Below are positions 1 through 42,625 of a stretch of DNA of 64,000 nt, one piece after another (the stretch's first letter is position 1; every line of letters begins with the position of its first letter). Source of the DNA: a virus. The stretch is taken from the IMG/VR virus record IMGVR_UViG_3300035670_009931, positions 1 to 64,000 of that record; one strand, given 5' to 3'. Made by a program: the position numbers and the translations under genes. The notes below the pieces were generated by a model. It made no database searches. It saw only the letters and a program-made list of their open reading frames with translations, and had not been told where the DNA came from.

Positions 1-83
1 CGCACCTGAATGTCCCCTTTCGACTGTTAATCACTGTCTACTCCAGGGTGCATAACCTATTTCTGCCAATACATCCAAATTGT

Positions 84-167
84 TGGTGGAGGCTGATGGA
101 TTCGAACCACCGTGCTGTTAAGACCTGGTTTACAATCAGGCGCAATCGACCACTCTGCCAAACCTCC
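84..167 (-). tRNA. tRNA-Tyr (anticodon GTA), class II with long variable arm, CCA encoded
   Basis: Manual cloverleaf on the minus strand. Acceptor GGAGGTT pairs with AGCCTCC. D-stem is 3 bp. Anticodon loop TTGTAAA gives U33-GUA-A37. T-arm is GGTGG-TTCGAAT-CCATC. Discriminator A is followed by an encoded CCA. Confidence 0.7.
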
Positions 168-454
168 ATGAACTTGTATGGTTCTCTCGGACCAAGAGTA
201 AACAATATCATTCACCGCACTAGGCTATCCAATGCCCGGACTCCTGATAATTGTTTTACCATATTTCAACACACTCAAGTCCGCGGCTCGGAAGGAACTA
301 TACCCGCAATGGGCTTACGCCCAGTCCCAATGCGTTGAAATATGGTATCACGTTACGTCAACGAACACTAGTAAAAACCCAGTGTCTCTGCAACGTAATA
401 CCTTGAAACCGTTAAATTGTTAAAGAACTAGTTGATCGCTCAACTCATGCATGT

Positions 455-483
455 ATTGTAGCACCTGCACGAATTATTGTCAA
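455..483 (-). promoter_or_regulatory. Near-consensus sigma70-type (T4 early-like) promoter TTGACA-N17-TACAAT, oriented toward tRNA-Tyr
   Basis: Minus strand reads TTGACAataattcgtgcaggtgcTACAAT. It sits about 280 nt upstream of the tRNA-Tyr 5' end. Confidence 0.5.
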
Positions 484-516
484 CTACTATTTGCTATGCT
501 CTGTAGGCTGATGCTT

Positions 517-600
517 CGTAAATCCAACTGGGATTCGAACCCAGGCCCCCAGCTGTCCAACAAGGTGTCCTATCCACTAGACGATTAGAACTCTCACGGT
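517..600 (-). ncRNA. Degenerate tRNA-like element: perfect T-arm but no acceptor pairing (pseudo-tRNA or structured RNA)
   Basis: Minus strand has CTGGG-TTCGAAT-CCCAG, a perfect T-arm. A D-arm-like GTC-TAGTGGATAG-GAC is also present. No 7-bp acceptor stem or clean anticodon stem could be built by hand. Confidence 0.25.
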
Positions 601-880
601 ATAACACGGCAATGCTAAACCCAGAGGCGAAGCAAACAAACCTTCTGAAGGTTGCCGCCTATCAGTCTACAGAACACAGCAAATTGTTAAAGATCGTTTC
701 GCTGATCTCTCAGCATGTTGACAGTATAACACTACTAGCATTTACTGTCAAACTGTAGTTGGCTTAATGTGTGATTTCCACCAACCTGGTACTCTGTATC
801 AGTCTAGGAATTTCCTAGCATCAACCTACGTCACACTGTGTTCTACAGTTTCATAACTATAACACTGTTCGCTTTTGATG

Positions 881-1099
881 TCAACGACCAAATTGCTTTT
901 TGTATTCGATTTCTGATTTTTTTTGTTCATAAACCACTTTACAGGCTAAACAAATTACAAAGGATAAACAACCGAATGCAAATCCAAACATTCCAAATTT
1001 TATAATAAGAAACCAGAAATACAGATTCAAAAAAAACACAATTCCAACTGCGGTTCCTACAACCTTGGCGGTATATTTGGCTGCTTCCAAATTGATCAT
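881..1099 (-). CDS. Small membrane protein (two predicted TM helices)
   Basis: 72-aa ORF with hydrophobic stretches (VVGTAVGIVFFLNLYFWFLII and FGFAFGCLSFVICLA). Confidence 0.4.
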   Translation of the reverse strand: MINLEAAKYTAKVVGTAVGIVFFLNLYFWFLIIKFGMFGFAFGCLSFVICLACKVVYEQKKSEIEYKKQFGR

Positions 1100-1114
1100 T
1101 TTTGATCCTTTATA

Positions 1115-1495
1115 TCAGAGGTTCAACAGTTGGCGCTCTTCGGCAGTCAGTTTTGCCAATGCCGAACGGCGAACTTCTTCTTTACGTTTGGTTTCTTCCA
1201 TCTCAAAAATTTTAGTGTTAACTTCATCAATGAGTACGTGAAGATCCTGCCAACTTCTCTCACTATATTCTGGTGAGAGATGATACGCATCTTTCCAGGA
1301 ATCCCAATCGTTAGTCCTCACCGCAAATTTACCTCCACGAACACTCATGCTGAAGTCAGCAGTAGTTGCATCTTCAAGAGTCTTCATCAAGAGTGGAAAG
1401 TATTCCGCACGTTCTTCTTCAATTCGTTCAAGACGGATCTGTTCATATTCGGCATTTAATTGAGCTTTAGTCTTACGAGGCATTTCGTACTCCAA
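1115..1495 (-). CDS. Hypothetical protein
   Basis: 126-aa ORF. GC content is slightly above the local background. Confidence 0.5.
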   Translation of the reverse strand: MEYEMPRKTKAQLNAEYEQIRLERIEEERAEYFPLLMKTLEDATTADFSMSVRGGKFAVRTNDWDSWKDAYHLSPEYSERSWQDLHVLIDEVNTKIFEMEETKRKEEVRRSALAKLTAEERQLLNL

Positions 1496-1767
1496 CGATT
1501 TTTTGATTTGTGAATTATGTCACATCTTGTGGTTGTTGTCAAGCTCAAGATGTGTATAGTAAAGCACACTAAATTAAATATAATGTGCTTTACTATATAC
1601 GGGTTTTACACATTTTGGTTATCGCCCAAAACTTATCATCACCGTACCCGCCCTCATTATTAGCCAGATGTTTTAAGTGCCCAGCAGGATCGCGTTTCCT
1701 TTCACACTTTGAGCAATTTATAGTGGCATTCCAAAATAAATTATACTCTAATTCTACCTCCAAAACA

Positions 1768-1800
1768 AAAAACCCCAGATCTTTCGATTCTGGGGTCCTT
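1768..1800 (-). terminator. Rho-independent terminator downstream of the 2002-2700 gene
   Basis: Minus strand reads CCCCAGAatcgaaagaTCTGGGG followed by a T-run. Confidence 0.5.
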
Positions 1801-2001
1801 AGAGTTAAGTTATGTTTTTGTTAAACTTTGTCCTCCTTGGACCCCTGTATCTCATATGTGCGATCATTTTTAATTGAGACACATATGGGTAAATTAAACC
1901 ATGCCTGGTAACTGGCTGATTTAAGTGTTGACATCATGATATGGGTGTTAGTTTTCATATACTTTATTTATAATTATTTATAATAAATGTTCATTTATTT
2001 A

Positions 2002-2700
2002 TCAATTATTAAGCCACCAAGCAAAAGTAGTTGGTCTAACTTGACAAGCATAATCTGCATCTAATGGTACATATGTTTTTAGTTCATTTTCTCCATACCG
2101 ATCACCAAGAAATGATTTATTAACGGTATATGGAAAATATGGATCTCCATGTTCCACCCCTGGATCAGGTGGTCTACCATCAAAAGTTGTATGAGACAAT
2201 TTACTAAATTCATATAATTTATCTATCCATTCCCGACCAGCAATTACTTGAATGGCGGTTTCTGGAATTTGATGCCTTCTGCACCAAAATGCTTCCCATC
2301 CATTAGCAAATTCATTTAGATAAGTTTGAAACTTTTTAGATATTAAAAAAGAATCTGCCTCTACATGAATTATTTTATCATAGTTGTATTTTTTAGCATA
2401 TACACTAGAAAATGTAAATGAACGATACCAACCATGATGATTATAGAAAGCAGGACGCCCTAAATTTTTCTGGAAATGGTATATAATACCACGGCTTTCT
2501 GGTTCATTATCTGGTAACTGACCTTCTTCTATAATTTCAATCCCGTCCCAATGTGGGAGTTCTGGACTCCCATCGTCAAACATTAGGACTTTATCTGCTT
2601 CTAAATATCCTGATTCGACGGCGTTAATCCATCTACCATGTAGGTCCTCCCACTGTGATAGATCTTTACCATATGTAGTACAAAATAATAATGTTTTCAT
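2002..2700 (-). CDS. Hypothetical protein, possible GT-A-like glycosyltransferase
   Basis: 232 aa. The LMFDDGSPE motif resembles the DDGS/DxD signature of GT2-type enzymes. The similarity is weak. Confidence 0.4.
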   Translation of the reverse strand: MKTLLFCTTYGKDLSQWEDLHGRWINAVESGYLEADKVLMFDDGSPELPHWDGIEIIEEGQLPDNEPESRGIIYHFQKNLGRPAFYNHHGWYRSFTFSSVYAKKYNYDKIIHVEADSFLISKKFQTYLNEFANGWEAFWCRRHQIPETAIQVIAGREWIDKLYEFSKLSHTTFDGRPPDPGVEHGDPYFPYTVNKSFLGDRYGENELKTYVPLDADYACQVRPTTFAWWLNN

Positions 2701-2704
2701 TTTT

Positions 2705-3373
2705 TTAAATTTCTGGAAATAATGTTTCTTCTATAAAATTTGTGATTTCTTTTTTATCTATGCCCATTGAAACCATACTATTTAGAACATGTGGATTTTG
2801 CTTTTGGAAAAAACAGTAACGATTTTGGTAGTCTGCATAGTTACTCTCAGTTGCCGATCCTATATTTTCTAGATAATATGTAAGACTTTCTAGAGCTATA
2901 TTTTTCAATTGATTTATTTCTTCAATATCTTGAAGATTTCCGGCTGCTATCATGGCTGGACTAAATATTTGTTTCGCCCATTCTGGTAGTTGCCTAGGTT
3001 TGTTCCAATTTAAATTTTTAGTTTTTTCTTCAAACCAGTTGAATATTGAATTATCATCTGTATTTGTTAAACTAAAGTCGTGGAATGCACCTGTAATTTT
3101 ATTTTGACCACATACAGCGTCAAATCCCCATATTGGACTAGGATCATTAATATGGGGAAATATTGTACAATGTAAAATATAGATCTTATGGGTTGATCTT
3201 TTATCAACTATTTCAATGTGTGCACGACGATAAAGTTTACTTGTATAAATGTTGTTATACCAACTATACTTTTCTTCTATGCCATTAATTTTAGATCCAG
3301 TTTCGTTAAATTTATTTTCTATTTTAACGGCTAGATCCGAAATTTCATTCCAAATCAATGACATTGTAGTCAT
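2705..3373 (-). CDS. pcyA: Phycocyanobilin:ferredoxin oxidoreductase (ferredoxin-dependent bilin reductase)
   Basis: ILHCTIFPHINDPSPIWGFDAVCGQNKITGAFHDFSLT aligns with the conserved PcyA core (ILHCVMFP...PLFGCDIVAG...ADLSPT). The gene is adjacent to ho1. Confidence 0.7.
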   Translation of the reverse strand: MTTMSLIWNEISDLAVKIENKFNETGSKINGIEEKYSWYNNIYTSKLYRRAHIEIVDKRSTHKIYILHCTIFPHINDPSPIWGFDAVCGQNKITGAFHDFSLTNTDDNSIFNWFEEKTKNLNWNKPRQLPEWAKQIFSPAMIAAGNLQDIEEINQLKNIALESLTYYLENIGSATESNYADYQNRYCFFQKQNPHVLNSMVSMGIDKKEITNFIEETLFPEI

Positions 3374-3884
3374 TCAATAATTTGATAGCCCAATCAAAAG
3401 CAATATTAGCTTCGTCAGCCATTGTATCTTTTAATTTAGCTCGTAAATTATTTTTCAATAATTCTGGATCTTTAAATGTTAAACTTAGATGTGATCCTGG
3501 AATTATTTTTTTGATCATTTGCCCACCATATAAATCACCCATATGCCATACATAGAGGTGAGCCATAATTCTATCTTTATCTGGGAATAGTTTTAAAATA
3601 TAATTATGGTAATCTATTGCTGGTTGTCTGAATTTATGAAATGTATCTTTATTAGTATTATTATTATAATCTCTATAAAGATAATGTGTTCTGCAAATAT
3701 CTGGAAGATCTGTCAAAAGACCACAAGCTCCAGCTACACCTTCAATCCCATTATAGATTAATTGTCGTTGATAGATATAATCACACCATATATTAAAAGG
3801 AAGTTTGTTTTTAAAGATGGCTTGCATGAAATTGGTTTTTTCTGCAATATCATGCTTTTCTTTTGTTAATTCTTTTAAACTCAT
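3345..3884 (-). CDS. ho1: Heme oxygenase
   Basis: HO-like N-terminus (LKELTKEKHDIAEKTNFMQAIF). The start is placed at the internal Met whose ATG overlaps the clpS stop (GCATGAGT). The upstream part of the track ORF would overlap clpS. Confidence 0.6.
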   Translation of the reverse strand: MSLKELTKEKHDIAEKTNFMQAIFKNKLPFNIWCDYIYQRQLIYNGIEGVAGACGLLTDLPDICRTHYLYRDYNNNTNKDTFHKFRQPAIDYHNYILKLFPDKDRIMAHLYVWHMGDLYGGQMIKKIIPGSHLSLTFKDPELLKNNLRAKLKDTMADEANIAFDWAIKLLNDYNVIDLE

Positions 3885-4186
3885 GCTTCCTCTACTCGTA
3901 CTTTTAATGGCCAACCATTTGCTCTTGCCAAATCAATAGTATCGATTGATTTTTGCTCGGCAATTTCATAACTATATATAGCTACAGTTGATTTACCTTC
4001 TGTATGAATTTGCATCATGAGTTCTTTTGATTTGGCTTCACTGTGTTTAAAAACTTTCATTAACACAGCAACCACAAATTCCATAGGTGTATGATTATCA
4101 TTTAGAAAAATCACGGCATATTTTTTTGGAGCTATAATTTTTTCAGAAGATAGTTTTTTCTTTTCAAGAATTATTTCTGTTGACAT
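3881..4186 (-). CDS. clpS: ATP-dependent Clp protease adaptor ClpS
   Basis: The core motif YAVIFLNDNHTPMEFVVAVLMKVF matches ClpS. The track start at 4216 is a TTG codon. An ATG at 4186 gives a 101-aa product close to ClpS size. Confidence 0.7.
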   Translation of the reverse strand: MSTEIILEKKKLSSEKIIAPKKYAVIFLNDNHTPMEFVVAVLMKVFKHSEAKSKELMMQIHTEGKSTVAIYSYEIAEQKSIDTIDLARANGWPLKVRVEEA

Positions 4187-4190
4187 AGTA

Positions 4191-4227
4191 TAAAAATTTA
4201 TTGAAAAATGGGGCAAGATGCCCCATT
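4191..4227 (-). terminator. Hairpin plus T-run after hsp20 (terminator or attenuator between hsp20 and clpS)
   Basis: Minus strand reads AATGGGGCAtctTGCCCCATT, then TTTTCAATAAATTTTT. Confidence 0.45.
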
Positions 4228-4230
4228 AGA

Positions 4231-4668
4231 TTACTCAGCCTTGATTTGTAATACTCTTGGCTTTAGTGCTTCGGGAATTACTCGATTAAGAGTAATTGAC
4301 AAAACTCCGTTTTTAATTTTACCTTCATTTACTTCCATATGTTCTGGAAGTAACCATGCACGTACAAACTTACGTGCTGCTAATCCACGATGAATGTAGT
4401 ATGATTCATCAATAGAATCATCCTTAACTTTTTCACCACGGATAATTAGTTGATTTTGATCAATTTCAACAGTAACCTCGTCAGGTGAAAATCCTGTAAC
4501 AGCAATTTCCAATTCATATTTATTTTCATCTTTTTTAATGAAATTAAATGGAGGATAAGAACTGCTAATTTGATTAGCGAACTTACGCTCAAAGTCGTTG
4601 AAAATAGAATCAAAACCTAGAAGTGCCTTTTGTAGGGCTGTAGTATCAAAACGTGTTAAACTATTCAT
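4231..4668 (-). CDS. hsp20: Small heat-shock protein (Hsp20 / alpha-crystallin family)
   Basis: 145 aa. The alpha-crystallin core (ELEIAVTGFSPDEVTVEIDQNQLIIRGEK...LPE...NGVLSITL) is present. Confidence 0.8.
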   Translation of the reverse strand: MNSLTRFDTTALQKALLGFDSIFNDFERKFANQISSSYPPFNFIKKDENKYELEIAVTGFSPDEVTVEIDQNQLIIRGEKVKDDSIDESYYIHRGLAARKFVRAWLLPEHMEVNEGKIKNGVLSITLNRVIPEALKPRVLQIKAE

Positions 4669-4727
4669 TTTTTTCTCCTTAATAAGTAAGTTATGTAGTA
4701 GACCTTAATAAGTATCCGCTACATATA

Positions 4728-4735
4728 TATTTATA
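4728..4735 (-). promoter_or_regulatory. T4-type late-promoter motif TATAAATA upstream of hsp20
   Basis: Minus strand has an exact TATAAATA about 60 nt upstream of the hsp20 ATG. Confidence 0.3.
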
Positions 4736-4741
4736 CAAGAT

Positions 4742-4957
4742 TTACAACTTTTTGTCAATATCTACGTATAAATTCGGTGATTTATTGATTTCTGAAAGTA
4801 ATGGATATAGAATTTTCTGTTGAATTCTATATGCCATTGTTTCCATAACAGTTTCTATGTTGTCACCTTTTTTAAGGCATTTAAGGGCCAAAGAAAGTTC
4901 ATATTCCATAACTTTTTCAGCCCACTGTTCCAATGAAACATTGTTATCAAATTTCAC
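4742..4957 (-). CDS. Hypothetical protein
   Basis: 71-aa ORF. Its stop overlaps the start region of the upstream gene. Confidence 0.4.
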   Translation of the reverse strand: MKFDNNVSLEQWAEKVMEYELSLALKCLKKGDNIETVMETMAYRIQQKILYPLLSEINKSPNLYVDIDKKL

Positions 4958-5796
4958 AAATCAATATATATATTTGGATTCCATCCTGAGTCTGGTTCAT
5001 AACCTTCATAACCACGTGGATTACATACCACTCTGGTATTTCCTATTGTGTAATCAAAAGGTGTGTGAACATGACCATGACACCAGAGAGCTATTTGAGG
5101 GCGATCCAGTATAAATTCTGATAAATCAGAATAATATGCTCCATTCATGTAACGGTCATTTTTATACTTTGGATTAATAGATAACTCACTTGGTGCCATA
5201 TGACTAACTACCACTATACGTTCAGCTGGATTATCTTTAATAGAATTACCGATAAATTCTAAACTACGACGATGCCTACTCAATGTATGTGCAGGACGTA
5301 ATTTAGTATATCCTAAACCATCATGTCGAATCACACGATAATCATTCATACCGTTAGCTACCGTATATAATGTTATTGGGTCACCTCGATTCATATCAGT
5401 CCATAGTGTAGACCCAATAAAAAGAATGTCATCAATCTTTTTACAATCGTCTTCCATGAAATAAATGTTAGGAAACTTAGCGCACTCATCACGCAATACA
5501 CGTATACTATCAATGAATTTTCCGTGATAAAATTCATGATTACCAGCAACATAAATTACGTGTGGAAATTGAAAACTAACACGTTTCAAAAAATCACGAA
5601 AACGTTGTGCCGATTCTTGAATCCGACCTAATTGAGCATATGGTGCATATGGACTAACGACTGGCTCTGGATGATCATGAAGATTTTGCGCGATCATAAT
5701 ATCACCAGATAAAATAAGAACATCACAATTTTCATCGTTCGTAATATTAATGTCACTAAATTCTAAATGTAAGTCACTAACTAGCTTAATACGCAT
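4954..5796 (-). CDS. Calcineurin-like metallophosphoesterase
   Basis: Metal-binding motifs DLHLE, GDI, GNHEF and GHVH are all present. Confidence 0.7.
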   Translation of the reverse strand: MRIKLVSDLHLEFSDINITNDENCDVLILSGDIMIAQNLHDHPEPVVSPYAPYAQLGRIQESAQRFRDFLKRVSFQFPHVIYVAGNHEFYHGKFIDSIRVLRDECAKFPNIYFMEDDCKKIDDILFIGSTLWTDMNRGDPITLYTVANGMNDYRVIRHDGLGYTKLRPAHTLSRHRRSLEFIGNSIKDNPAERIVVVSHMAPSELSINPKYKNDRYMNGAYYSDLSEFILDRPQIALWCHGHVHTPFDYTIGNTRVVCNPRGYEGYEPDSGWNPNIYIDL

Positions 5797-5861
5797 TCAT
5801 ATCTCCATAAAAAAGTCTAGGATCTTTTACAATCCTAGACTGTGCTACTAACTATTTCTAA

Positions 5862-7277
5862 TTAGCAATCGTAACGGCTATTACCGATGGTTTTCATCAT
5901 AATTCCAAAAGGAGTAAACTCCATAGGATCAGCCTTCAACAGGCTAGTCATGATACTTGGGCTGAACCCACTTACCAACGCTGCACCACTCTTGTCACTC
6001 TTAACAGGTACATTGTCTGAACTGTTAAGGTTCCAGAATACCACAGAAGGTAACTCATAACCAGCATCACGATACTTACGTTCAATCATCTCCATTGCAC
6101 TGTCATCATGACGAACACACTGATTGAACTGCATGTCCGAAAGAATCAACAACATCTTTGGCATATCGCCTTGAGGAACACGGTTCTTCACTGCGGTGCT
6201 TAGGATCTTGTCAAAAGCAGCATGTAGGTTAGTACTCATACCCCACGAACTCTTGATCATTTGGTGAGCCTTCTGAACAACATTTCCCTTGAGGGTCAAC
6301 AGTTCAGGACGATCACTAAATGTCAAGAATGTACCATTGAAGGCACCCTTGTTCTTATCAGCCAAGTACAGACCAAGCGAAACACTAACGTCCAAACAAG
6401 TTACACTAGTGTTCTTCCCTGCTGGACAAACCATAGACCCACTTACATCAACTAGAGGCATGATGTTAGCATCACCAACATAGTTAGGCAATGCATCCCA
6501 TTGTGCCACGATATGGTCCAACTCAGTCTTGTTGAGATTAGTTGTTCCATATGCTCCAATCACACCCTTAAGGACATCATGCGGGAAGATAGCTCCAGCA
6601 TTTACCTTAACGGTAGGATCACCCTTGACCAACTTAGCCACATACTCCGCAAACTTTGGAGTATGACGGTTGAACGCCTTCTTGTAAATACGAGAAGCCT
6701 GACTAGGTACATGACTAAAGTTGATGTTATCCCAATCGTTGGCACACATTTGTGATTCAACGACAGAGGTCAACCCAACAAGAGTCTTACGATACTGTTT
6801 AGGAGTCATCCCAAAGTAGTTACGGATTTCAGCCGCAACTGGTCCCTTGCGAGGAGTCCATTTTGCTGCCAGCCCGTTCTTTGCCCGGATATGTTCACCC
6901 AACAGAGTGAAGGCACGATCCTTCATATCCTTGGTCTTGAAGACGAACAAGTCATCAAAACGACCAAGTTCAGGAACACGATTCATCAGCCGTGCTGCGG
7001 CTGAAGGATCAGTGGACTCTAGATAAGTTAGGATATCACGGAAGATCTGACGTTCGCCAGCGCCTTCCCTTACATCACGTGCCCATAGTGCGATGCGCAA
7101 GGCAATCTCACGATCTTGTACATATGCTGCAACAAACTGTGGAATGATGTTTTTTCCACGGCTTGCCCCCACATTGTAGAATAGATCTACCAGAGCATTG
7201 TTAGTGGTCTTACGAGCCTTCATGCCGTTAGCGGTACGAGACTCTTGCTCTTGAATTGCGTTTACAAATGCGTTCAT
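5862..7277 (-). CDS. vWA-domain protein (DUF2828/TROVE-like architecture)
   Basis: 471 aa. A MIDAS-like motif (LVDVSGSM...T...D) is present. GC content is clearly higher than the surrounding DNA. Confidence 0.6.
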   Translation of the reverse strand: MNAFVNAIQEQESRTANGMKARKTTNNALVDLFYNVGASRGKNIIPQFVAAYVQDREIALRIALWARDVREGAGERQIFRDILTYLESTDPSAAARLMNRVPELGRFDDLFVFKTKDMKDRAFTLLGEHIRAKNGLAAKWTPRKGPVAAEIRNYFGMTPKQYRKTLVGLTSVVESQMCANDWDNINFSHVPSQASRIYKKAFNRHTPKFAEYVAKLVKGDPTVKVNAGAIFPHDVLKGVIGAYGTTNLNKTELDHIVAQWDALPNYVGDANIMPLVDVSGSMVCPAGKNTSVTCLDVSVSLGLYLADKNKGAFNGTFLTFSDRPELLTLKGNVVQKAHQMIKSSWGMSTNLHAAFDKILSTAVKNRVPQGDMPKMLLILSDMQFNQCVRHDDSAMEMIERKYRDAGYELPSVVFWNLNSSDNVPVKSDKSGAALVSGFSPSIMTSLLKADPMEFTPFGIMMKTIGNSRYDC

Positions 7278-27546: not shown

Positions 27547-30063
27547 TTATTGTCCTTCTGATACATTCTGATTCATCTTGTGCAACTTATCAAGTTCATC
27601 AGTAAATGCTTTTCCTGCTAGTTTTATATTACCAGTATCTTTCATAACGTTATATGCAACATCAATTACATCTAACATTTGTTCATTTGATGGAGTCCAT
27701 CCACTAACAGCATTTTTCAAAAATCGCATGATTGATGGAAGCGTTGTTATAAGATATTGTTTATATGCTTCTGGATCTTTTTTTGGATCACCTGTATTTT
27801 CTGTAAAACTTTCACTTGTCTTTTTTTTACTGTTGTCGTCTATATCAGAATCTGGTACAATTTTTGCAGGTATAGATTTTATATCTGCTATTTTATGTGC
27901 CCAAAATCTGTGATGACCATCTAATACTTGATAACCTTTTCTATATTTGCGTACTAAAATAGCGGGGAGTTTATCCCCTTTCTTTAGTTTTGTTACCATT
28001 CTTTTAATCTTAGTTTTGCTTTCCGTTTGATGCATCTTTTTACTAGGTTCAAAAGTAGTAAGTTTATCAATCGGTATATTAATTGTTGGTAACTTATCAA
28101 ATCCGGTATCATCTACATCTGCACCATAATATTCAGGATCGGTGTATAGTTTTATTTTACCTTCCGCCACACCTTGCTTCAATCTTGCACTTTGTAATTC
28201 ACCACTAGTAATATACTTTACCGGTAATGATTTTATGTTTGAGTCAACCGCTTTAGCCAATCTATGAAGACCATCAATTACAGTCAATTTACCATTGTTG
28301 CTTTTTGTAATCACAACAGGAACTGATATATCGGCATTTTTTAATCTGGTTATATCCGGTTCATCATATGCTAATACCCATGCCAATTTACTTACTGAAC
28401 ATTGTTTAGTTGGCTTAGTTTCTGCCATAGCCAAAACTTTATCAAAATCATATTCTACTCCGTCATGGGTAATTGATCCGCCCTCTTTATATGAGCCTTC
28501 CGTCAAACCTTTTTGTTTTGATTTCTTTGCTTTATCTAAATAATATTTTCGTAGTTCTAAATCTTTTTTTGTTGGTGTGCGAACTAAATCAAGATGTCTA
28601 TCTACCGGTTCTTCTATTATATTTTCATCGGGAACATGAATTGATTTTATGTGAGGTAGACTTGAAAATTCGTTATTATTACCGCCCGGTTCCCACATAT
28701 CTTTACCATTCTTGTCATATCTAGGCAATTTATGTAAATAGACATTTTCACCGTGTCTTAGTTTACCATTAAATAAAATCAATTGATCTTTTTGGTCGAA
28801 CATACCGGTATCAGATCCATCGGTTGTCATTCCCATTTTTATTGCAGTATTCTTATCAGCAGTTGCATATATAGCAAATCTATTACTACCTTCTTCTCCA
28901 CCAGTATCATGTGCTTGTTTAGGAACTAATACGTTAATTCTATGTTTTGAACCATGCCACAAGTATTTTTGTTTATCAGCTTGTTCACTTACTTTTTTTT
29001 TACAACTACCAGGTTTTCCTGCTGGAACACCACGTACTCTGGTATAACCGGGCCAACATTTTAATTCGTCTAACTTATCAGATTCATTGTTAGCTATCAT
29101 TTTTTCCAGCATATTGGAAGGAGTATCTTCATCACCTGCAATATATTCTATAAAATTTTCATGACGATCTTCTAATCCTTTTAGACCAGAATTTATTGTT
29201 CTTGTAACTTCAGTAGTATTTTTAAAATCAGAAACTTTTGGTTTTACACGTGCTCCCCAGTACCACAAAGCAATTTGTGCTGCAATATCTGGATCTTCTG
29301 CTAATTGTGGATTGTTTATTAAATCTTTGCCAATAGCTTTACCTGCAATTCGATAATTATATCTACCTGTTAATTGTATAAATCCACGACCTTTAAATCG
29401 TATACCATCACCAATTTTTGTGTTACCCAATCTTTTTGCTCTGTCAGGTGAATATTTTGGGTCATATCTCTTGAAATAATTTTTACCACCCTGTTCTGCT
29501 AAACGTGAAAAATCTCTAGTTTCATGGGCACATTGTGCCATAAATTGTGCAAGTTCATATCCACTTAAACCTGCTTTTTTTGCATAATTCATCAAGAATT
29601 TTTCTCTTGGGCTACTAGTTATATAATTAACAGTTGGTTGTTTAGTAGCAACTGGTTTAGCTTGTTGAGTAGCTGGTGCAGTATTAGGTGCAGTAGCTGT
29701 TGCAACCGGTTGATTTTGTTTTGGACCTGTCAATGCTTGTTTGGCGGTCATCACACCAGTAGAACCAAGTGCCACTGCACCAGCTAATCCTAAACCAAAT
29801 AATTGGTCACGCCAACCTTCTTCTAAATCATCTGAATAAAATTCATTTAATTTATTCTGTGAAACAAGTTCATTATATTTTTTTCTTGATATATACCAAG
29901 TTCCAGTTGAGGATTTTTTAAATCCAAGATCAGTCAATTGACGATCACTATAACTGCCTTTTAGTTGGCCGGGTTTTAAAAATACAATATCTTTGTATTT
30001 GTTATCTTCTGTAATATTAAATTCTGAAAAACGCATCTTGTATTTATAATTTTTTAAATACAA
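27547..30063 (-). CDS. Multidomain protein: GH19 lysozyme/chitinase-like domain plus two ParB-like nuclease (ParBc) domains
   Basis: GH19 block FKGRGFIQLTGRYNY. Two ParBc-like motifs near the C-terminus (VIDGLHRLAKAV; VLDGHHRFWAHKI). 838 aa. Confidence 0.55.
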   Translation of the reverse strand: MYLKNYKYKMRFSEFNITEDNKYKDIVFLKPGQLKGSYSDRQLTDLGFKKSSTGTWYISRKKYNELVSQNKLNEFYSDDLEEGWRDQLFGLGLAGAVALGSTGVMTAKQALTGPKQNQPVATATAPNTAPATQQAKPVATKQPTVNYITSSPREKFLMNYAKKAGLSGYELAQFMAQCAHETRDFSRLAEQGGKNYFKRYDPKYSPDRAKRLGNTKIGDGIRFKGRGFIQLTGRYNYRIAGKAIGKDLINNPQLAEDPDIAAQIALWYWGARVKPKVSDFKNTTEVTRTINSGLKGLEDRHENFIEYIAGDEDTPSNMLEKMIANNESDKLDELKCWPGYTRVRGVPAGKPGSCKKKVSEQADKQKYLWHGSKHRINVLVPKQAHDTGGEEGSNRFAIYATADKNTAIKMGMTTDGSDTGMFDQKDQLILFNGKLRHGENVYLHKLPRYDKNGKDMWEPGGNNNEFSSLPHIKSIHVPDENIIEEPVDRHLDLVRTPTKKDLELRKYYLDKAKKSKQKGLTEGSYKEGGSITHDGVEYDFDKVLAMAETKPTKQCSVSKLAWVLAYDEPDITRLKNADISVPVVITKSNNGKLTVIDGLHRLAKAVDSNIKSLPVKYITSGELQSARLKQGVAEGKIKLYTDPEYYGADVDDTGFDKLPTINIPIDKLTTFEPSKKMHQTESKTKIKRMVTKLKKGDKLPAILVRKYRKGYQVLDGHHRFWAHKIADIKSIPAKIVPDSDIDDNSKKKTSESFTENTGDPKKDPEAYKQYLITTLPSIMRFLKNAVSGWTPSNEQMLDVIDVAYNVMKDTGNIKLAGKAFTDELDKLHKMNQNVSEGQ

Positions 30064-35933: not shown

Positions 35934-37028
35934 TTATAGATCAGGCAACTCTTCGTAGTTTAATTGTTCGCTCATTACACCGATAACATAGTTGGTAGAT
36001 TCAGTTTCTTGTAATGCAACTTGTTTTTTAGAAATGTTTATATGTTTATTAAACCAGGGTATAGGACTATTTTTTGGATAGTCTTCATTATATTTCACAC
36101 CAATATCTTTTAATCTATTATAGGCAGTGTAATCAACAAAGTTCTTTAGAATTTCAGAATTTAATCCAATTACTACACCCTTTTTAAACAAATAATCAGC
36201 CCAAGATTTTTCTTCCTTAATCACTTCTAGATATAAGTTATATACTGCTTCTTCACATAAGATTTTTGCTTTAGCAAATCTTTCATCTTCTTTAACTACT
36301 GTATTAATAATCCAAGCAGTCCATTCAGCATGTAATAATTCATCCTGTAAAATTAAACTAATAATATTACCATTACCTATATAAATCTTATTTTCCACCA
36401 TAGCTAAGCTGGTAGCAAAACTAACCATAAACCTGAATGCTTCTAATGCATAACTTGCATTTAATGCCATCCATATTGCATTTATGTGTTCTTGCTCGTC
36501 TACCATTATACCTAATTCTTTGGAACAATTCAACTTGTGCAATCTATCATAATGATCACCAATATTAGATGCCATATTAATAATTTCGTCAGTTTCATGG
36601 ATCTTGTTGAATTCATCCTTTGGAACGCCATATACATTTCTTATAATGTGACTATAGCTTTTAGAGTGGATATTGGTTTCAAAAAAGCTCCAATTGTTAA
36701 CTAACGCTTCAAGTTCGGGAATTGAAATAACAGGTCCGAAAACTTGACTCGGGGCGCGACCCTGTATGCTGTCAAGAGCAGTTTGACGTAATAGATTACT
36801 TGTAAAAATATGTTTGACAGCATTGCTGGCTTCCTTATGATCCATTTTATCTTTGGTTAAACTAATTTCTTCAGGAACCCAAAAAAATCCACGTTGTAAT
36901 TCTTCAAATTTTGCTATTTTTGGTTGGCGATACTCTTCAAATCTTTGAACAGTAACTTCGCCATCCAAGAACATTTTTCTCTTTAAATAATTTGGTTTTG
37001 TTTTTAAATCGTATTGTGCTTTTGACAT
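35934..37028 (-). CDS. nrdB: Ribonucleoside-diphosphate reductase beta subunit
   Basis: Ferritin-like class Ia R2 with a diiron ExxH motif (ILQDELLHAEW). 364 aa. Confidence 0.8.
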   Translation of the reverse strand: MSKAQYDLKTKPNYLKRKMFLDGEVTVQRFEEYRQPKIAKFEELQRGFFWVPEEISLTKDKMDHKEASNAVKHIFTSNLLRQTALDSIQGRAPSQVFGPVISIPELEALVNNWSFFETNIHSKSYSHIIRNVYGVPKDEFNKIHETDEIINMASNIGDHYDRLHKLNCSKELGIMVDEQEHINAIWMALNASYALEAFRFMVSFATSLAMVENKIYIGNGNIISLILQDELLHAEWTAWIINTVVKEDERFAKAKILCEEAVYNLYLEVIKEEKSWADYLFKKGVVIGLNSEILKNFVDYTAYNRLKDIGVKYNEDYPKNSPIPWFNKHINISKKQVALQETESTNYVIGVMSEQLNYEELPDL

Positions 37029-37652
37029 TTATAGCATTCCTTTTATTTGTTCTCTAAAAAATCTAATATGAAAATAAGATCGTGTTTCAGCTAGCATGTT
37101 TCCAATTTCAGAAAGAACATATTGATACCTTTTGAAATCAGTATCATCATGTTGAAAATATCGATTCATTTCATCGCTGTTTTTAAATGTAGTGAATGTT
37201 TTGCCCGGTTTCTGTTTATCGTACACTGATACATTCAACCCTATATTGAACAGTCTGTCCCATATTGCTTTACCTTCATCACTTAAAGAATCATCACTCA
37301 TTAATCGTATACTTAAATTTTTGTTATCATCTAAAATAAATTTGTATAATTCACTAGCATATGGTTGTTTACCTCGATATTTAGGGTTTTTTCCAGTTAA
37401 CATAACTACCAATGCTTGAGGGCGTTTTTCAAGTTCAACCCCCAATATAATAGTGCTTTGCTTATCTTCTAACCAATAATAAATTGTCTGAGATAAGACA
37501 ATCTTTTTTATATTATTTCCTAAATCTACTGGGTTTACTCCATTATTCAATAGGTCATTTATATGATATACAAGTGCATCATATGTTTCAAAATTTCCAA
37601 GACCTGTTGGCATTTCAACCAACCAAGTCTTTTCAAAATTCTCTCTACTCAT
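37029..37652 (-). CDS. Hypothetical protein
   Basis: 207-aa ORF. Confidence 0.45.
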   Translation of the reverse strand: MSRENFEKTWLVEMPTGLGNFETYDALVYHINDLLNNGVNPVDLGNNIKKIVLSQTIYYWLEDKQSTIILGVELEKRPQALVVMLTGKNPKYRGKQPYASELYKFILDDNKNLSIRLMSDDSLSDEGKAIWDRLFNIGLNVSVYDKQKPGKTFTTFKNSDEMNRYFQHDDTDFKRYQYVLSEIGNMLAETRSYFHIRFFREQIKGML

Positions 37653-37668
37653 GAAATTTTTCCTTTAA

Positions 37669-38238
37669 TTATCTCCATTTTGGTCCTTCAAACCATGCAA
37701 CTAAACTGTGTCTTGTACCATATGTAACAGGGGTAACTTCATGTGGAATAAATGAAGGGAAAAATATAACAGAGCCCTGTTGTCTAATATCAGATGCCAA
37801 AGGTTCCTCAAACCCATCTAGATGGAATTTCATTTCACCACCTAGATAATCAGCAGGATTTGATAATTGAACTGAGCAACTTAATTTTCTATGATGATTT
37901 GGATCATTATTAATCCAAAATACATCATGGTGTTTCTTATATTCACCTCTTTCCGAGGCATCATATTCCCCTATTTGAATAAAATTTAACCTTGTTACAT
38001 GAATATTAAAAAAAGCTTGGTTTGCCTCTAATGCCATTAACCAAAGATCATTAAAAACATCTTTAAAATCAGGATTATCTTTTTGTATAAATTTTACTCG
38101 ACTTTTACGTATACTGACATCTACAACTGAATTACCAACTACAGCGGTTTCCCAATTATATTTTTCAGACTTTTTGATAATACTTTGACAGTACTCTGGA
38201 GTCCATTTACTTTTAAAGTAACACCATAGTCCATTCAT
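37669..38238 (-). CDS. 2OG-Fe(II) oxygenase (prolyl-4-hydroxylase-like)
   Basis: HxD...H...R pattern (KKHHDV ... PHEVTPVTYGTRHSLVAWF). Confidence 0.6.
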   Translation of the reverse strand: MNGLWCYFKSKWTPEYCQSIIKKSEKYNWETAVVGNSVVDVSIRKSRVKFIQKDNPDFKDVFNDLWLMALEANQAFFNIHVTRLNFIQIGEYDASERGEYKKHHDVFWINNDPNHHRKLSCSVQLSNPADYLGGEMKFHLDGFEEPLASDIRQQGSVIFFPSFIPHEVTPVTYGTRHSLVAWFEGPKWR

Positions 38239-38774
38239 AACTTACAACTCAAACAATCTTGCTCATCATCATCTGGAATGACTATTTCATTGACAACATT
38301 ACTAGATGATGTTAATGTTGTTTTAGAACCCAATTTGTTAATTAAACTATAGTAGAAAGTTTTTAATCCCCATTTATATCCTAACATTAGATTTTTTGCA
38401 ATTAATGTACTCGGAACTTTCCCGTCTTTAAAATGTGCAGGATTATAAAACGTATTTGTACTAATACTTTGATCTATATATGCAGCAAGTACCGCAGCAG
38501 TTTTTAGATATTCAACACAATCTTTTTGATCCCACATTAGTTGATACCTATTTTTTAATTTTTTATATTCGGGGACAACTTGAACAAAACTTCCAGCCTT
38601 TGATTCTTTAACTGAAATCAATTCCATAGGAATTTCAATTCCATTAGTTGAATTTAAAACTACAGATGAGTTGTGAGATACACAACCATTTGGTAACGCA
38701 TATGCACCACTTTTTGTAGTGATATCATATGTTGGAACTACTTCAGTATGCCTATTAATTTTTTTTATTTTCAT
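38235..38774 (-). CDS. nrdA: nrdA C-terminal fragment: split-intein C-half (35 aa) fused to the RNR alpha C-extein
   Basis: MKIKKINRHTEVVPTYDITTKSGAYALPNGCVSHN carries intein blocks F/G (YDITT...NGCVSHN). It is followed by SSVVLNSTNGIEIP...IDQSISTNTFYNP...GYKWGLKTFYY...CLSCKL, which aligns with the NrdA C-terminus including the CxxC tail. It has its own GGAG RBS and ATG. Confidence 0.75.
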   Translation of the reverse strand: MKIKKINRHTEVVPTYDITTKSGAYALPNGCVSHNSSVVLNSTNGIEIPMELISVKESKAGSFVQVVPEYKKLKNRYQLMWDQKDCVEYLKTAAVLAAYIDQSISTNTFYNPAHFKDGKVPSTLIAKNLMLGYKWGLKTFYYSLINKLGSKTTLTSSSNVVNEIVIPDDDEQDCLSCKL

Positions 38775-39954
38775 TTATTTTCTCCATCAATTCATCGAGT
38801 GTTAAGGAACATTTCATACGCTTACTACAATTTTCTTCAACTAAAATCCATTCTAAATTTAATGGATTTCCTATAATTTCTGGGTTTATCCCGTCTAGAT
38901 AACCCTGCATTTTTGAATACATGTGATCGAGATGATATTCCCCTTTATGACGTCCTCGTTTACCCGGACATTCTGGTATTTTAGATAACGACTGTCTAGT
39001 GAATCTATCAACAGAAGCTGAGTAACCTTTAAATCCTTGATGTAATTCTTCTGCTAATTTACCGTATTCACGAAAACATGATGATTTCACCAGTCTTCTC
39101 TCATTATAGATACTTTCACCATTTTTACCATACTTATCCATACAAAATTTTAAACTTGAACCATCTTTTCTAGTGTTTATATTTTCTAGAATATTTTTTA
39201 TTTCTTCTTTGGTAAGACCCCTAGATTCCCAATATTCTTTGTGTAGACCAGAATACAACTTTTGAGTATCAGATATCATTTTTCTAGACTCATCCAAAGA
39301 ATAACCTCTTTTAATCCAAAAATCTACTGTACAACGATTAGCCTCTCTTTTGTATTTTTGGAATCCATCGATGCTATCATCCCAATAGTCAATATAATTT
39401 TTATGAAATCTATGAATAAATTTATGCTTTTCTCTACCCACAGTGTCGCCATATATTTCTATACACCTACTCAATGACAAGGATGTTTCATATTTCAACT
39501 TCTTTATTTTTTCAATAACAGCATCATCCGAAAGTCCTTTAGATACCCAATAAGATGGATCATATATATTAGGTTTATTCGTCAAATATTCTTTTTTGTG
39601 GGACTCCCAATTATTACCGTATTTAACTTTAAAGTATTCATCGCTATTACTCACTGCTTTATGTTTTTTTCTATAATTTAACCACTCGGTGAATCTAGAT
39701 GGATCGTACTCATCATCACTCAACCCGCGAACATATAACAAGAAATTTTTATCATTGATGAATCTAAAAATAGCATCAATAATATTTTTTCTGTCGTTTA
39801 ATGACAATCCATAAAATTTAGATATATCTTCGTCTGATGCAGCAGAAAGAAGAATATCCAATTCTTCTTTCGTTTTTACTTTATTCAATATTTTTTTAGG
39901 TTGGGATCTCGGTTTCCCCAAAATCATTAACTTCAACGACATCATCTCCTTCAT
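38755..39954 (-). mobile_element. Free-standing homing-endonuclease-like ORF (HNH-like C-terminus) inserted between the two nrdA halves
   Basis: 399 aa, in a third reading frame. It overlaps both nrdA fragments. The C-terminus HLDHMYS...GNPLNLEW...ENCSKRMK is HNH-like. Confidence 0.55.
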
Positions 39955-42151
39955 TTAATTCCCGAACGTGTATCCATTTTTTCTCATTATTGCGATTAAC
40001 CAACAATCTATGATTATCGGTGAGTTTCACTATTGATCCATCTTCAAATATAATCTCATTAACTGAGGCCATGCCATTATAATATATACTTGTTATAGAA
40101 TCTGCATTTCCATTTGGCCCAACAACAGAAATTTCATCTATTTTGTGATGACCGATTAAATTGGTAGCCTCTATTAATTCCCAATTTAATCCAGCCTTTT
40201 CACATAATTCATGAAAATTGGGTAACGTTCCGTCCAAAGTATTTATCTTATCTTCCCAAGAATGACAACTTTCTACAGGTGCTACAGCCATTAGTGTTGC
40301 ATTACGTATACCATATTTTAACATTTTTTCACGTAGGGGTTCCCAGTTTAATGAGGGTGTGAAATCAGTTAGTTCATTTACTCCATTACTTCTACGTTCC
40401 CAAGGAAATACTCCTTTGCCGTACCAAGTATGTTGACTACGAGTGCAAGCCCCTTTTTCTTGAGCTAGTTCAACACTCACTTCAGTCAAGTAATATGATT
40501 GATGTTCGGCCCACCTTTTTACCTCAGCCAAGCTAGTTGAGTCACCGTATTTAAAATTCCGTTTGGCATGCCAGTAAGCTAGATTTGTTATACCAATACC
40601 AAGTGGTTCAAACTCATCATTCGATAACTTACTTTGAACACTTAGAAAATCTTGATATCCCAATAAGTTACTTAAACTTCTTACCAATACTCTACATGCT
40701 TTACGCATATCTTGCGGATTTTTAAATACACCCCAATTTATACTTCCAAGTGTACATAACGCTATACGACCTGATTCATCTTCAATACGCTCAAATGGAC
40801 GATTAGGTAACAAAATTTCTAAACATAAGTTTGATTGATAGATAGGGTCTAGTTTAGTATCGAACGAACCTTGATTAATAACATTATCAATATTAACGAT
40901 ATAAATTCTACCAGTATCGGTTCTTTCTTTTAATATACCATTCTTAAAAATTTCTTCAGCAGATATAACTTTTTTCTTTTTGGATGAATCTTGTTCATAT
41001 TTTACATATAAGCTTTCAAAAAGTTTGCTATCTCTATAGTATGCTTCGTATAAATCTTGAACTTCATGTGGATCAAATAAAGTTATATTCTTCCCTTGTT
41101 TAAATCGTTTCCAAAATAATCCACTAATAACAACGCCATAGTCCAACTGACGAACTCTTGTTTCTTCAGTGCCTTGATTATTTTTGAGAACAATCAAATC
41201 TTCAAATTGATAATGCCATATTGGGAAGAATACCGTGCAACTTGCATTTCTAATTCCACCTTGAGAACAAGAACGAAGATCTCCATACCACTTCTTTAAG
41301 AAAGGTACTAGTCCAGTATGTTTAATTTCTCCATTGCGAATTGGTGCTCCTAATGGCCTAATTCTACCTATTTCTAGGCCAATTCCTGCACGTTTTGATG
41401 CATATTTTGCCATCATTTCACCTGTGGCAAAAATTGAATCTAATGTATCATCACTAGAAATAAGAACACAGGAACTGAATTGTTTAGTGGTTGTCCCTAG
41501 ACCAGCAAGAACAGGAGTTGCTAAAGTGAAATGTCCATCTGATGCACATTCATAATACTCTTTTACAAACTTTAGTCTTTTATCCTTACTTTCAGCATGG
41601 AATGCGGTAGCAGCAGCTATTGCATACCTTACTTGTGGAGTTTCATAAATCTTGCCAGTTGCTCTATTTTGAACTAGATACTTTTCACACAATTGAGCAA
41701 TCGCTGCATATGTATAATTTTCATCCTTAGAATGATCTATAAAAAGATCAATAATATTCCATTCTTCTTCGGTATACCACTCCATAAGTTCAGGGGTATA
41801 CATACCTAATTCTACGTTTTTCTTTACTATATTGTATAAAGTATCAGGTTCATATTTTCCATATACTTCTTTTCTAAGCATACTTAAACGCTGTCTACCT
41901 GCGACATACTGATAATTTACATTATTAATGTCTTCGTTTTCGCTTTCATCAATCAAACTGACCATAGCCTGTAGTAACAACTTGTCAATTGTTTCAGTTG
42001 TCATTTTATCATGAAATTGAAGTTGTGCCCGTATTTGAATCATAGACGGACTAACAGAATCAATACCTTTACAACAATTATCAACCTGTCTTTGAATTTT
42101 ACTTATATCCAATGGGACGATTTCCCCATCACGTTTAACTACCGTAATCAT
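39896..42151 (-). CDS. nrdA: nrdA N-terminal fragment: RNR alpha N-extein (about 630 aa) fused to the split-intein N-half (about 121 aa)
   Basis: Class Ia catalytic residues are present (SNLCLEI, ALCTLGSIN). The extein ends ...LMAVAPVES. It is followed by CHSWEDKINTLDG (block A) ... SIVKLTDNHRLLV (block B, TxxH), then a stop. Confidence 0.8.
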   Translation of the reverse strand: MITVVKRDGEIVPLDISKIQRQVDNCCKGIDSVSPSMIQIRAQLQFHDKMTTETIDKLLLQAMVSLIDESENEDINNVNYQYVAGRQRLSMLRKEVYGKYEPDTLYNIVKKNVELGMYTPELMEWYTEEEWNIIDLFIDHSKDENYTYAAIAQLCEKYLVQNRATGKIYETPQVRYAIAAATAFHAESKDKRLKFVKEYYECASDGHFTLATPVLAGLGTTTKQFSSCVLISSDDTLDSIFATGEMMAKYASKRAGIGLEIGRIRPLGAPIRNGEIKHTGLVPFLKKWYGDLRSCSQGGIRNASCTVFFPIWHYQFEDLIVLKNNQGTEETRVRQLDYGVVISGLFWKRFKQGKNITLFDPHEVQDLYEAYYRDSKLFESLYVKYEQDSSKKKKVISAEEIFKNGILKERTDTGRIYIVNIDNVINQGSFDTKLDPIYQSNLCLEILLPNRPFERIEDESGRIALCTLGSINWGVFKNPQDMRKACRVLVRSLSNLLGYQDFLSVQSKLSNDEFEPLGIGITNLAYWHAKRNFKYGDSTSLAEVKRWAEHQSYYLTEVSVELAQEKGACTRSQHTWYGKGVFPWERRSNGVNELTDFTPSLNWEPLREKMLKYGIRNATLMAVAPVESCHSWEDKINTLDGTLPNFHELCEKAGLNWELIEATNLIGHHKIDEISVVGPNGNADSITSIYYNGMASVNEIIFEDGSIVKLTDNHRLLVNRNNEKKWIHVRELNEGDDVVEVNDFGETEIPT

Positions 42152-42202
42152 AAAAAATTATTCCTTTTACTTTTTCTTAGAAAGTATTATTTACTTGTAA
42201 AT

Positions 42203-42625
42203 TTATATTTGAATTAAATTTTCAACAAAATAGTTGCTTAATATTGAGTCTTTAAATACAGGCTCTTGATCTTTAAAATTAAGTACAAATTTATTATCTA
42301 CAACAACTACATTATACCTATTTTCATCGTTACTGTCTACTAGCATCTGAATCTCAATAGGAGTGTCTTTAAATTTATTTGTATATTTTAAAGTTAAAGC
42401 AATCATTAACGATTTTGTAAAATCATCATATTTATTTTCAATGATTATTTCCCATGGGGTTGGCCATGATTTTTTATTGTAAGGATCAACTTTACGATTG
42501 TAAGGAACAAAGGGTGCATTGTTCCAAAATTCACATACATCTTCAAATGGTGTATCTGAGCTATCGATTAATTTTCTATGTTGCACCCAATCAGATAATC
42601 TTTGTTCTATAGATTTTTTAAACAT
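42203..42625 (-). CDS. Hypothetical protein
   Basis: 140-aa ORF. Confidence 0.45.
   Translation of the reverse strand: MFKKSIEQRLSDWVQHRKLIDSSDTPFEDVCEFWNNAPFVPYNRKVDPYNKKSWPTPWEIIIENKYDDFTKSLMIALTLKYTNKFKDTPIEIQMLVDSNDENRYNVVVVDNKFVLNFKDQEPVFKDSILSNYFVENLIQI

Follow-up and report, generated by a model that had tools for sequence, protein, structure and literature searches.

The DNA analyzed here, hereafter the window, comprises positions 1 to 64,000 of the IMG/VR virus record IMGVR_UViG_3300035670_009931, and it encodes the α subunit of a class Ia ribonucleotide reductase (RNR) in separate pieces. We conclude that this nrdA gene very probably carries a composite selfish element at the codon boundary equivalent to Escherichia coli T624/S625: a mini-intein into which a free-standing homing-endonuclease gene has inserted at the canonical position for endonucleases, leaving two halves that act by trans-splicing. 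Three minus-strand open reading frames (ORFs) lie in three frames, each +1 relative to the preceding one: ORF1 (39896..42151; 751 residues) joins the NrdA N-extein to the intein N-half (IntN), ORF2 (38755..39954; 399 residues) encodes an endonuclease-like protein, and ORF3 (38235..38774; 179 residues) joins the intein C-half (IntC) to the NrdA C-extein. ORF2 shares up to 59 nt with ORF1 and 20 nt with ORF3. A model that saw only the letters of the window had proposed three such ORFs at 38235-42151 (the original prediction), and its coordinates are exact.

Dassa et al. (2009) described this arrangement as the ‘fractured gene’, and it is thus of an already known kind (PMC2677866). As in the loci reported from the GOS metagenome, which include NrdA-1 to NrdA-7, NrdJ-1/2, gp41-1, IMPDH-1 and others, the window combines a host N-part with IntN, a free-standing endonuclease gene, and IntC with the host C-part, all phage-borne and targeting a DNA-precursor enzyme. 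By contrast, in all seven of the Dassa NrdA loci the split immediately precedes the thiyl-radical Cys, whereas that in the window is at T624/S625. Moreover, the endonucleases of that study were GIY-YIG or Vsr-like only, an HNH type being merely predicted (PMC2677866), whereas the protein encoded in the window is neither but looks HNH-like, and its ORF overlaps both intein halves.

Together, the exteins (628 and 144 residues) contain the ATP-cone, all-alpha domain, barrel, active-site residues, Tyr-Tyr motif and Cys pair of a class Ia RNR α subunit, and an NrdB partner is also encoded. The N-extein (ORF1 residues 1-628; 40268..42151, minus strand) holds the ATP-cone, the all-alpha domain, most of the barrel and the active-site Cys, Asn and Glu. 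ORF1 matches the Pfam families ATP-cone and Ribonuc_red_lgN as well as positions 1-395 of the 523-position barrel profile Ribonuc_red_lgC, and it aligns to E. coli R1 and a related solved NrdA (E about 1e-170) with NLC.E and the other Cys motifs in register. The C-extein (38235..38669, minus strand), which runs from Ser+1 through FYY to CLSCKL and the stop codon, takes up Ribonuc_red_lgC at positions 393-522. The barrel profile is therefore cut exactly at the junction, which cannot be a coincidence. When spliced in silico, the exteins align without a gap across the junction to E. coli R1 571-732, as the original prediction held, and this alignment places the intein between T624 and S625, in a loop (E623-S625) that we take to touch the substrate phosphates. 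The DNA at the N-side junction reads GCA CCT GTA GAA AGT/TGT CAT TCT TGG (APVES/CHSW), with the boundary between AGT (Ser628) and TGT (Cys629) at 40268/40267; at the C side it reads GTA TCT CAC AAC/TCA TCT (VSHN/SS), with the boundary between AAC (Asn35) and TCA (Ser+1) at 38670/38669. An N-extein of about 630 residues had been predicted to carry all of the catalytic residues. The length stands but the residue assignment does not, as FYY, with the radical-transfer tyrosines that correspond to E. coli Y730/Y731, belongs to the C-extein together with the C-terminal CxxC (CLSCKL); both NrdA fragments are thus indispensable, and neither can be active alone.

IntN (ORF1 residues 629-751, CHSWEDKINT...LTDNH...; 39896..40267, minus strand) begins with Cys629 directly after APVES, carries LTDNH as block B and ends after 123 residues at a TAA stop codon (39896-39898). 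IntC (ORF3 residues 1-35, MKIKKINRHTEVVPTYDITTKSGAYALPNGCVSHN; 38670..38774, minus strand) contains blocks F and G (YDITT...NGCVSHN/S) and begins at an ATG (38772-38774) that lies 7 nt past a GGAG Shine-Dalgarno (SD) sequence (38782..38785, minus strand), read from the sequence inside the 3′ end of the endonuclease ORF. An SD-like element is found 6-9 nt 5′ of the IntC start in all six loci compared. Against Pfam Intein_splicing (PF14890), IntN alone scores 25.5 bits and the joined halves 38.4 bits, above the curated gathering cut-off of 35.8 bits, with the match extending to the last profile position. A profile of the intein family matches the window at positions 1-117 in ORF1 only (E 2e-48) and at positions 118-153 in ORF3 only (E 4e-13); no other intein half or endonuclease copy was found in the 64 kb. 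The anatomy expected at the outset is thus present at every point: an IntN with Cys1, block B and a stop codon in ORF1; an ORF3 with its own GGAG and ATG, a 35-residue IntC, Ser+1 and an NrdA C-terminus with its CxxC tail; intein blocks A, B, F and G; and halves of the sizes that are canonical for split inteins.

The intein-family profile also matches 38 PDB chains, every one an intein; Npu DnaE scores best (1.2e-8), and Npu/Ssp DnaE (PDB 2keq, 4kl5, 1zd7, 4qfq) are the closest solved structures. The break between IntN and IntC falls at profile position 118/119, and we regard the split as canonical because natural Npu DnaE IntC chains, which match positions 119-153, begin at the same place. 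DnaE IntC segments are likewise 35-36 residues long and start with M-x-K-I, and block A of Npu DnaE is CLSYETEILT, which CHSWEDKINT of the window resembles. There are clear differences, however. The two DnaE halves come from widely separated places in cyanobacterial chromosomes, no endonuclease lies between them and they use Cys at +1, whereas the window family uses Ser or Thr at +1 and has its own helical segment of ~25 residues after block A. In an alignment of 11 family members (the joined halves of five fractured loci plus six contiguous relatives, at 31-77% identity), C1, T10, T83 and H86 of block B, D140 of block F and H157-N158 of block G are invariant in all 11, and every member has Ser or Thr as its +1 extein residue, as expected of inteins that splice by the class 1 mechanism.

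The two halves are complementary in charge. IntN has a net charge of -14, with -7 contributed by its 25 C-terminal residues, against +3 over residues 1-12 of IntC, a combination that fits the electrostatic association described for split inteins; an acidic IntN and a basic IntC have also been reported for NrdA-2. The contiguous relatives occupy the same extein position with the same blocks and are 31-37% identical to the joined halves. By contrast, they are in one piece, have no endonuclease gene, lack 5-7 residues that the split forms have in addition at the break, and are less basic at the equivalent of the IntC N-terminus (-1 to +2, compared with +2 to +4 in split members). In the window, these additional residues are at the end of IntN (DFGETEIPT, the last ~7-9 residues), and their DNA also encodes, in another frame, the conserved endonuclease N-terminus ILGKPRSQPKK. 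The best single relative of IntN, a metagenomic protein of 192 residues (P0012), is 67% identical but covers IntN residues 28-122 only, fused to an unrelated 95-residue N-terminus without block A or Cys1; this protein may represent a piece of IntN that has been rearranged or has decayed.

Could the halves merely hold together a two-chain α subunit? A precedent exists in Aeromonas phage Aeh1, in which nrdA-a, mobE and nrdA-b encode a functional NrdA split between C439 and C462 and joined non-covalently by short terminal tails that are possibly remnants of a degenerate intein, with no intein motifs (PMC3045599). As in the window, a phage nrdA gene is cut in two by a free-standing gene for an HNH-type endonuclease, and the Aeh1 pieces are expressed separately. 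The charge complementarity of the halves would serve simple association equally well. The window nevertheless departs from the Aeh1 type in having complete intein blocks and a split at T624/S625, and we consider assembly without splicing unlikely. First, Cys1, the block B Thr and His, the block F Asp, the penultimate His, the terminal Asn and Ser/Thr+1 are invariant down to 31% identity, and mere association would not need invariant splicing residues. Second, without splicing, a Hint domain of 158 residues would stay lodged at the substrate-binding loop. Finally, the contiguous alleles of the same intein must splice for the enzyme to be active. Trans-splicing is thus the better-fitting reading, suggested by the conserved catalytic residues and by relatives that splice rapidly: gp41-1, gp41-8, NrdJ-1 and IMPDH-1 are very fast trans-splicers in experiments, and NrdA-2 was listed in 2020 as identified but not previously characterised (PMC7090010).

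The same three-gene layout, with its +1/+1 frames, recurs in every context that we fetched from independent JGI, ENA and Logan assemblies. At least five diverged metagenomic lineages have it, as do the finished genomes of three cultured phages, where it is unannotated: Klebsiella Alcyoneusvirus KP13-7 and phiKp_21, and Campylobacter vB_CjeM_WX1. The cultured-phage copies share with the window the insertion site, homologous IntN and IntC sequences and the nuclease module of the endonuclease, but the N-terminal regions of their endonucleases are largely unrelated to it in sequence and the GenBank label is ‘hypothetical protein’. In KP13-7 and phiKp_21, for example, the intein is 35% identical to that of the window (E 1e-29 for KP13-7) and the nuclease module is 38% identical over 65 residues; in KP13-7 the dual-coding overlap NENxKN-stop/MKIxKI is shared as well, and the extein junction is ...IMPGE-TSSQISNSTAGIEK. 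The arrangement, which the original prediction knew mainly from marine metagenomes, therefore occurs more widely, as this element resides in cultured Klebsiella and Campylobacter phages. Its recurrence across independent assemblies and cultured phages shows that the layout is neither an artefact nor the mark of a pseudogene.

These recurrences bear directly on three alternatives. That a contiguous, endonuclease-containing intein was broken by two frameshift errors of sequencing or assembly is scarcely credible and effectively refuted. Homopolymers of 7 and 8 A's do occur at the two junctions of the window, and such runs are error-prone on some platforms, but the stop, the restart and the +1/+1 frames are repeated across the diverged lineages, in different projects and in the three finished genomes; the A-runs are missing from three loci with the same layout (L009, L001 and L010); relatives conserve the endonuclease N-terminus in the endonuclease frame throughout the ORF1 overlap; and a separate SD sequence precedes the start of IntC. 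A biological counterpart of this idea, in which two programmed +1 ribosomal frameshifts or transcriptional slippage would fuse the ORFs into a cis-splicing intein that contains the endonuclease, draws on the conserved relative frames and on the A-runs that the window and some relatives have at both junctions. We reject frameshifting and slippage because the A-runs are not conserved, nor is any slippery motif in L009, L001 and L010. Moreover, neither junction has significant RNA structure, an SD sequence and start codon are conserved ahead of IntC, and in L009 the endonuclease ORF is truncated, leaving a gap before IntC, while both intein halves are kept. It is about as improbable as the artefact.

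The third alternative, that nrdA has been wrecked by selfish insertions and is degenerating, has been proposed for the nrdA gene of Campylobacter phages. Dwivedi et al. (2013) took similar loci to be degenerating genes or pseudogenes (PMC3653736), published analyses of these phages noted ‘inteins’ or ‘hypothetical proteins’ and read them as gene decay rather than trans-splicing (PMC3653736, PMC3322345), and some relatives (L008 and KP13-7) have three or more insertions. We nevertheless find decay very improbable. Non-synonymous change (pN) is well below synonymous change (pS) in the exteins, IntN, IntC and endonuclease, no lineage has an internal stop codon, the C-extein of the window is 91% identical to that of L008, the catalytic and splicing residues are intact, and nrdB is kept downstream. 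The proposal of a split intein, as opposed to a decayed or mis-sequenced contiguous one, is thus upheld by invariant splicing residues, a recurrent layout and pN below pS.

The accumulation of inserts in two of these relatives is striking in its own right. KP13-7 (L001, 28-5558) has its nrdA gene in four pieces. An ORF with a Pfam HNH_3 match lies in the first break (SCSQG-stop ... MWHLEF, with ~12 NrdA residues missing), where Rfam finds no group I intron; at the second, a split intein occupies the thiyl-radical site NLC/C together with a GIY-YIG endonuclease, as is typical of the Dassa NrdA loci; and the third is the element studied here. In L008 (Logan ERR14789965 contig, 1-6708), a close relative of the phage in the window, nrdA is distributed over at least four ORFs with three intervening ORFs of 369, 231 (with NUMOD3) and 395 residues, and its first nrdA fragment shows further Hint/LAGLIDADG hints, an extreme pile-up of selfish inserts in a single gene.

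Split, contiguous and empty alleles coexist at this site. An exhaustive search returned 210 relatives of IntN; among the best 100, 79 end at the C-terminus of their protein, and are thus split, and 19 are internal. Contiguous mini-inteins of 151-155 residues without an endonuclease occupy the same NrdA site in P0022, P0046, P0049, P0024, P0066 and P0073. All of the best 80 IMG/VR relatives (74-80% identity) are uninterrupted at the site, and a close endonuclease homolog is present in only five IMG/VR loci. The similarities of intein and exteins are also mosaic: the C-extein of the window is 91% identical to that of L008 and 72% to that of L004, whereas IntN is 63% identical to that of L008 and 74% to that of L004. 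In L009 (ENA ERZ27280939 contig, 4688-5605), the endonuclease homolog is cut to 305 residues and its whole nuclease module is lost, with IntN and IntC intact, which looks like decay of the endonuclease while the now-essential split intein is kept. This picture of mini-inteins, empty sites, split inteins and mosaicism matches the model of Dassa et al., in which a free-standing endonuclease gene invades a mini-intein, and it is compatible with a homing cycle; the contiguous mini-inteins plausibly represent the state before endonuclease invasion. An apparent match of Pseudomonas phage PA5oct that seemed to reach into IntC was rejected, being merely an uninterrupted NrdA.

The junction peptide APVES/SSVVLN is identical in all 80 of the intein-free relatives, and yet its two serine codons vary. 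Empty alleles (L012-L091) read TCN/AGY at the insertion point in 65 of 80 cases and AGT/TCY in 13, whereas the occupied loci, namely the window (40268-40270 and 38667-38669), L004-L009 and L092-L096, have AGT at -1 in 12 of 12 cases from ~5 lineages and TCN at +1 in four of the five lineages. We regard this difference as a candidate signature of the recognition site, of resistance or of co-conversion. That the AGT/TCY empty alleles might be the clade closest to the occupied ones was rejected, as they are not closer at this resolution. Together with the coexistence of empty and occupied alleles and the mosaic similarity, the codon polymorphism provides indirect evidence that the element may home.

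The middle gene (38755..39954, minus strand) encodes a helical N-terminal and central region with two kinds of short repeat module, each in three copies, followed by a putative C-terminal nuclease module (residues 301-399; 38758..39054, minus strand). Its longest ORF has the 399 codons and the overlaps with both neighbours that had been predicted; the start that is conserved in relatives corresponds to the ATG at 39925-39927. We found 11 full-length metagenomic relatives, 47-99% identical and in the same nrdA context in every one checked, and across relatives the ORF is intact at 387-399 residues and under purifying selection. In the nuclease module, D343, H344, S347, G351, N366, L367, N375 and K378 are invariant among metagenomic, Klebsiella-phage and Campylobacter-phage members. 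The order and spacing of these residues, with N366, N375 and K378 forming N-x8-N-x2-K, presumably correspond to a classical HNH core, and the predicted fold of the module looks HNH-like, with a beta-beta-alpha-metal arrangement.

Database searches place the protein less readily. Pfam at E up to 10 gave no match for the 399-residue protein, HNH or otherwise, nor for any of the eight members tested; the PHROGs matched, 5104 and 23051, are both of ‘unknown function’; a whole-chain Foldseek search against the PDB returned nothing at E<1; a profile of the nuclease module found only chance matches among PDB sequences; an hhalign comparison with a verified HNH_3 protein gave a non-significant probability of 1.6%; and a profile search of large databases added 14 members, none with an HNH label. 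Because curated profiles and similarity to solved HNH proteins both failed, we describe the protein as HNH-like and do not place it in a named HNH family. The predicted HNH-like C-terminus is accordingly supported by motif and predicted fold, on which the nuclease nature of the protein rests, but not by curated HNH profiles. I-Bth0305I and other Vsr-like (EDxHD) homing endonucleases have the same polarity, with N-terminal modular DNA binding and a C-terminal nuclease (PMC3239194), but the C-terminal module of the window protein is of the form DH...N...N with an HNH-like predicted fold, in contrast to a PD-(D/E)xK/Vsr core.

The central repeat modules are also common to the endonucleases of L097 (3282-4763) and L099 (3492-4553), two IMG/VR contigs where a related split intein divides a class I RNR, more distant than the others, at the equivalent position. 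The C-terminus of these endonucleases differs (EYxGxxxHPN) and gives a faint DUF559/Vsr-family hint (E 0.07), suggesting that nuclease domains have been swapped on a common DNA-binding scaffold. Another family member, CP21_075 of Campylobacter phage CP21 (388 residues; L011, 678-4048), lies between fragments of a gp18-like tail-sheath gene, with no recognisable intein halves at that locus and three more ‘putative homing endonuclease’ genes following it. The 5′ end of the endonuclease ORF in the window contains a perfect 11-bp mRNA hairpin, GAAAGAAGAAU-UGGAU-AUUCUUCUUUC (39845..39871, minus strand), ~25 nt past the ORF1 stop and covering endonuclease codons ~28-37, which could regulate expression of the endonuclease. 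At a similar offset, KP13-7 has another hairpin, of 9 bp and different sequence, and other loci likewise have different hairpins; neither the 11-bp hairpin nor a small hairpin over the endonuclease start is convincingly conserved among loci.

We propose the following model. Two polypeptides would be made separately, NrdA(1-628)-IntN (123 residues) and IntC (35 residues)-NrdA (144 residues), the latter being translated from its own GGAG/ATG within the last part of the endonuclease gene. IntC, through its basic N-terminus, would then associate with the strongly acidic IntN and fold with it into a Hint domain, and trans-splicing via Cys1, Ser+1 and the terminal Asn could yield a seamless NrdA of 772 residues (...APVES-SSVVLN...) that works with the downstream NrdB. 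Meanwhile, the 399-residue protein, which may pair modular DNA binding in its N-terminal and central part with an HNH-like (His-Me finger) nuclease at the C-terminus, would presumably cut intein-free nrdA alleles of co-infecting relatives. Repair of a cut allele could then copy the endonuclease gene and both intein halves together.

Several observations weigh against this model. An AF2 model built from the single sequence of the joined intein had a pLDDT of 34 and could not be used, so the Hint fold is assigned from profiles only. The SD spacing of the endonuclease start is poor, which makes its translation start uncertain, and no hairpin at either junction is statistically significant, with RNA folding z-scores near 0. 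The dN/dS values, about 0.09-0.28 where computable, are rough because dS is saturated. The anatomy, homology, conservation, selection and presence/absence polymorphism of the element are observed directly, whereas its splicing, DNA cleavage by its putative nuclease and its homing are what we infer from sequence.

More broadly, we tentatively advance a larger interpretation, in which our confidence stops a little short of considering it probable. The middle gene may found an unrecognised homing-endonuclease family, which would pair a divergent HNH-like nuclease with an array of helical DNA-recognition modules shared with endonucleases that have a different nuclease domain. Together with the split intein, it could form one ancient, co-evolving composite element, in which the endonuclease gene supplies the SD sequence and start codon of IntC through a conserved dual-coding overlap at its 3′ end. 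This element would have spread among uncultured aquatic phages, Klebsiella jumbo phages and Campylobacter phages; the RNR substrate-binding loop would be a new target for fractured genes; and the serine-codon switch would mark either the recognition site or a co-conversion tract.

There are several implications. First, the fractured-gene phenomenon is extended from GOS fragments to complete, cultivable phages (Klebsiella Alcyoneusvirus and Campylobacter Eucampyvirinae), in which trans-splicing and homing could be directly testable. Second, ‘hypothetical protein’ labels at such loci, and readings of them as decaying nrdA pseudogenes, are corrected. Third, a single site displays three stages of the proposed path, namely the empty site, the contiguous mini-intein and the endonuclease-invaded split intein, with endonuclease decay in one lineage in addition. 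Fourth, the intein represents a new Cys1/Ser+1 split-intein family with halves of 123 and 35 residues that might serve as an orthogonal tool for protein ligation, and an unclassified endonuclease with modular repeats may interest nuclease engineers. The different insertion site, the unclassified endonuclease family and the occurrences in cultivable phages offer a good experimental entry point; they establish no new principle and are not a conceptual surprise.

The surroundings of the element are those of a phage without a close cultured relative, since a megablast search of the locus against 50,697 phage records gave no match; a structural protein of the phage is only ~48% identical to cyanomyophage proteins. 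Rfam searches over 37500-42600 found no group I intron and no other family, and a sigma-70 promoter scan performed no better than on shuffled sequence. The gene for the RNR small subunit, nrdB, the functional partner of nrdA, lies downstream (35934..37028, minus strand; Pfam Ribonuc_red_sm, E 9e-36) and does not belong to the mobile element. Between nrdA and nrdB are a 2OG-Fe(II) oxygenase gene (37669-38238, minus strand; Pfam E 4e-13), the start of which overlaps the nrdA stop by 4 nt, and a 207-residue ORF with no family match (37029-37652, minus strand). L008 has the same oxygenase at this place, whereas the L004 group has an aldolase_II gene instead. Elsewhere in the window, an ORF of 838 residues (27547-30063, minus strand) has endolysin/chitinase-like PHROG matches at residues ~87-313 and a ParB-like domain at ~662-748, an unusual fusion.

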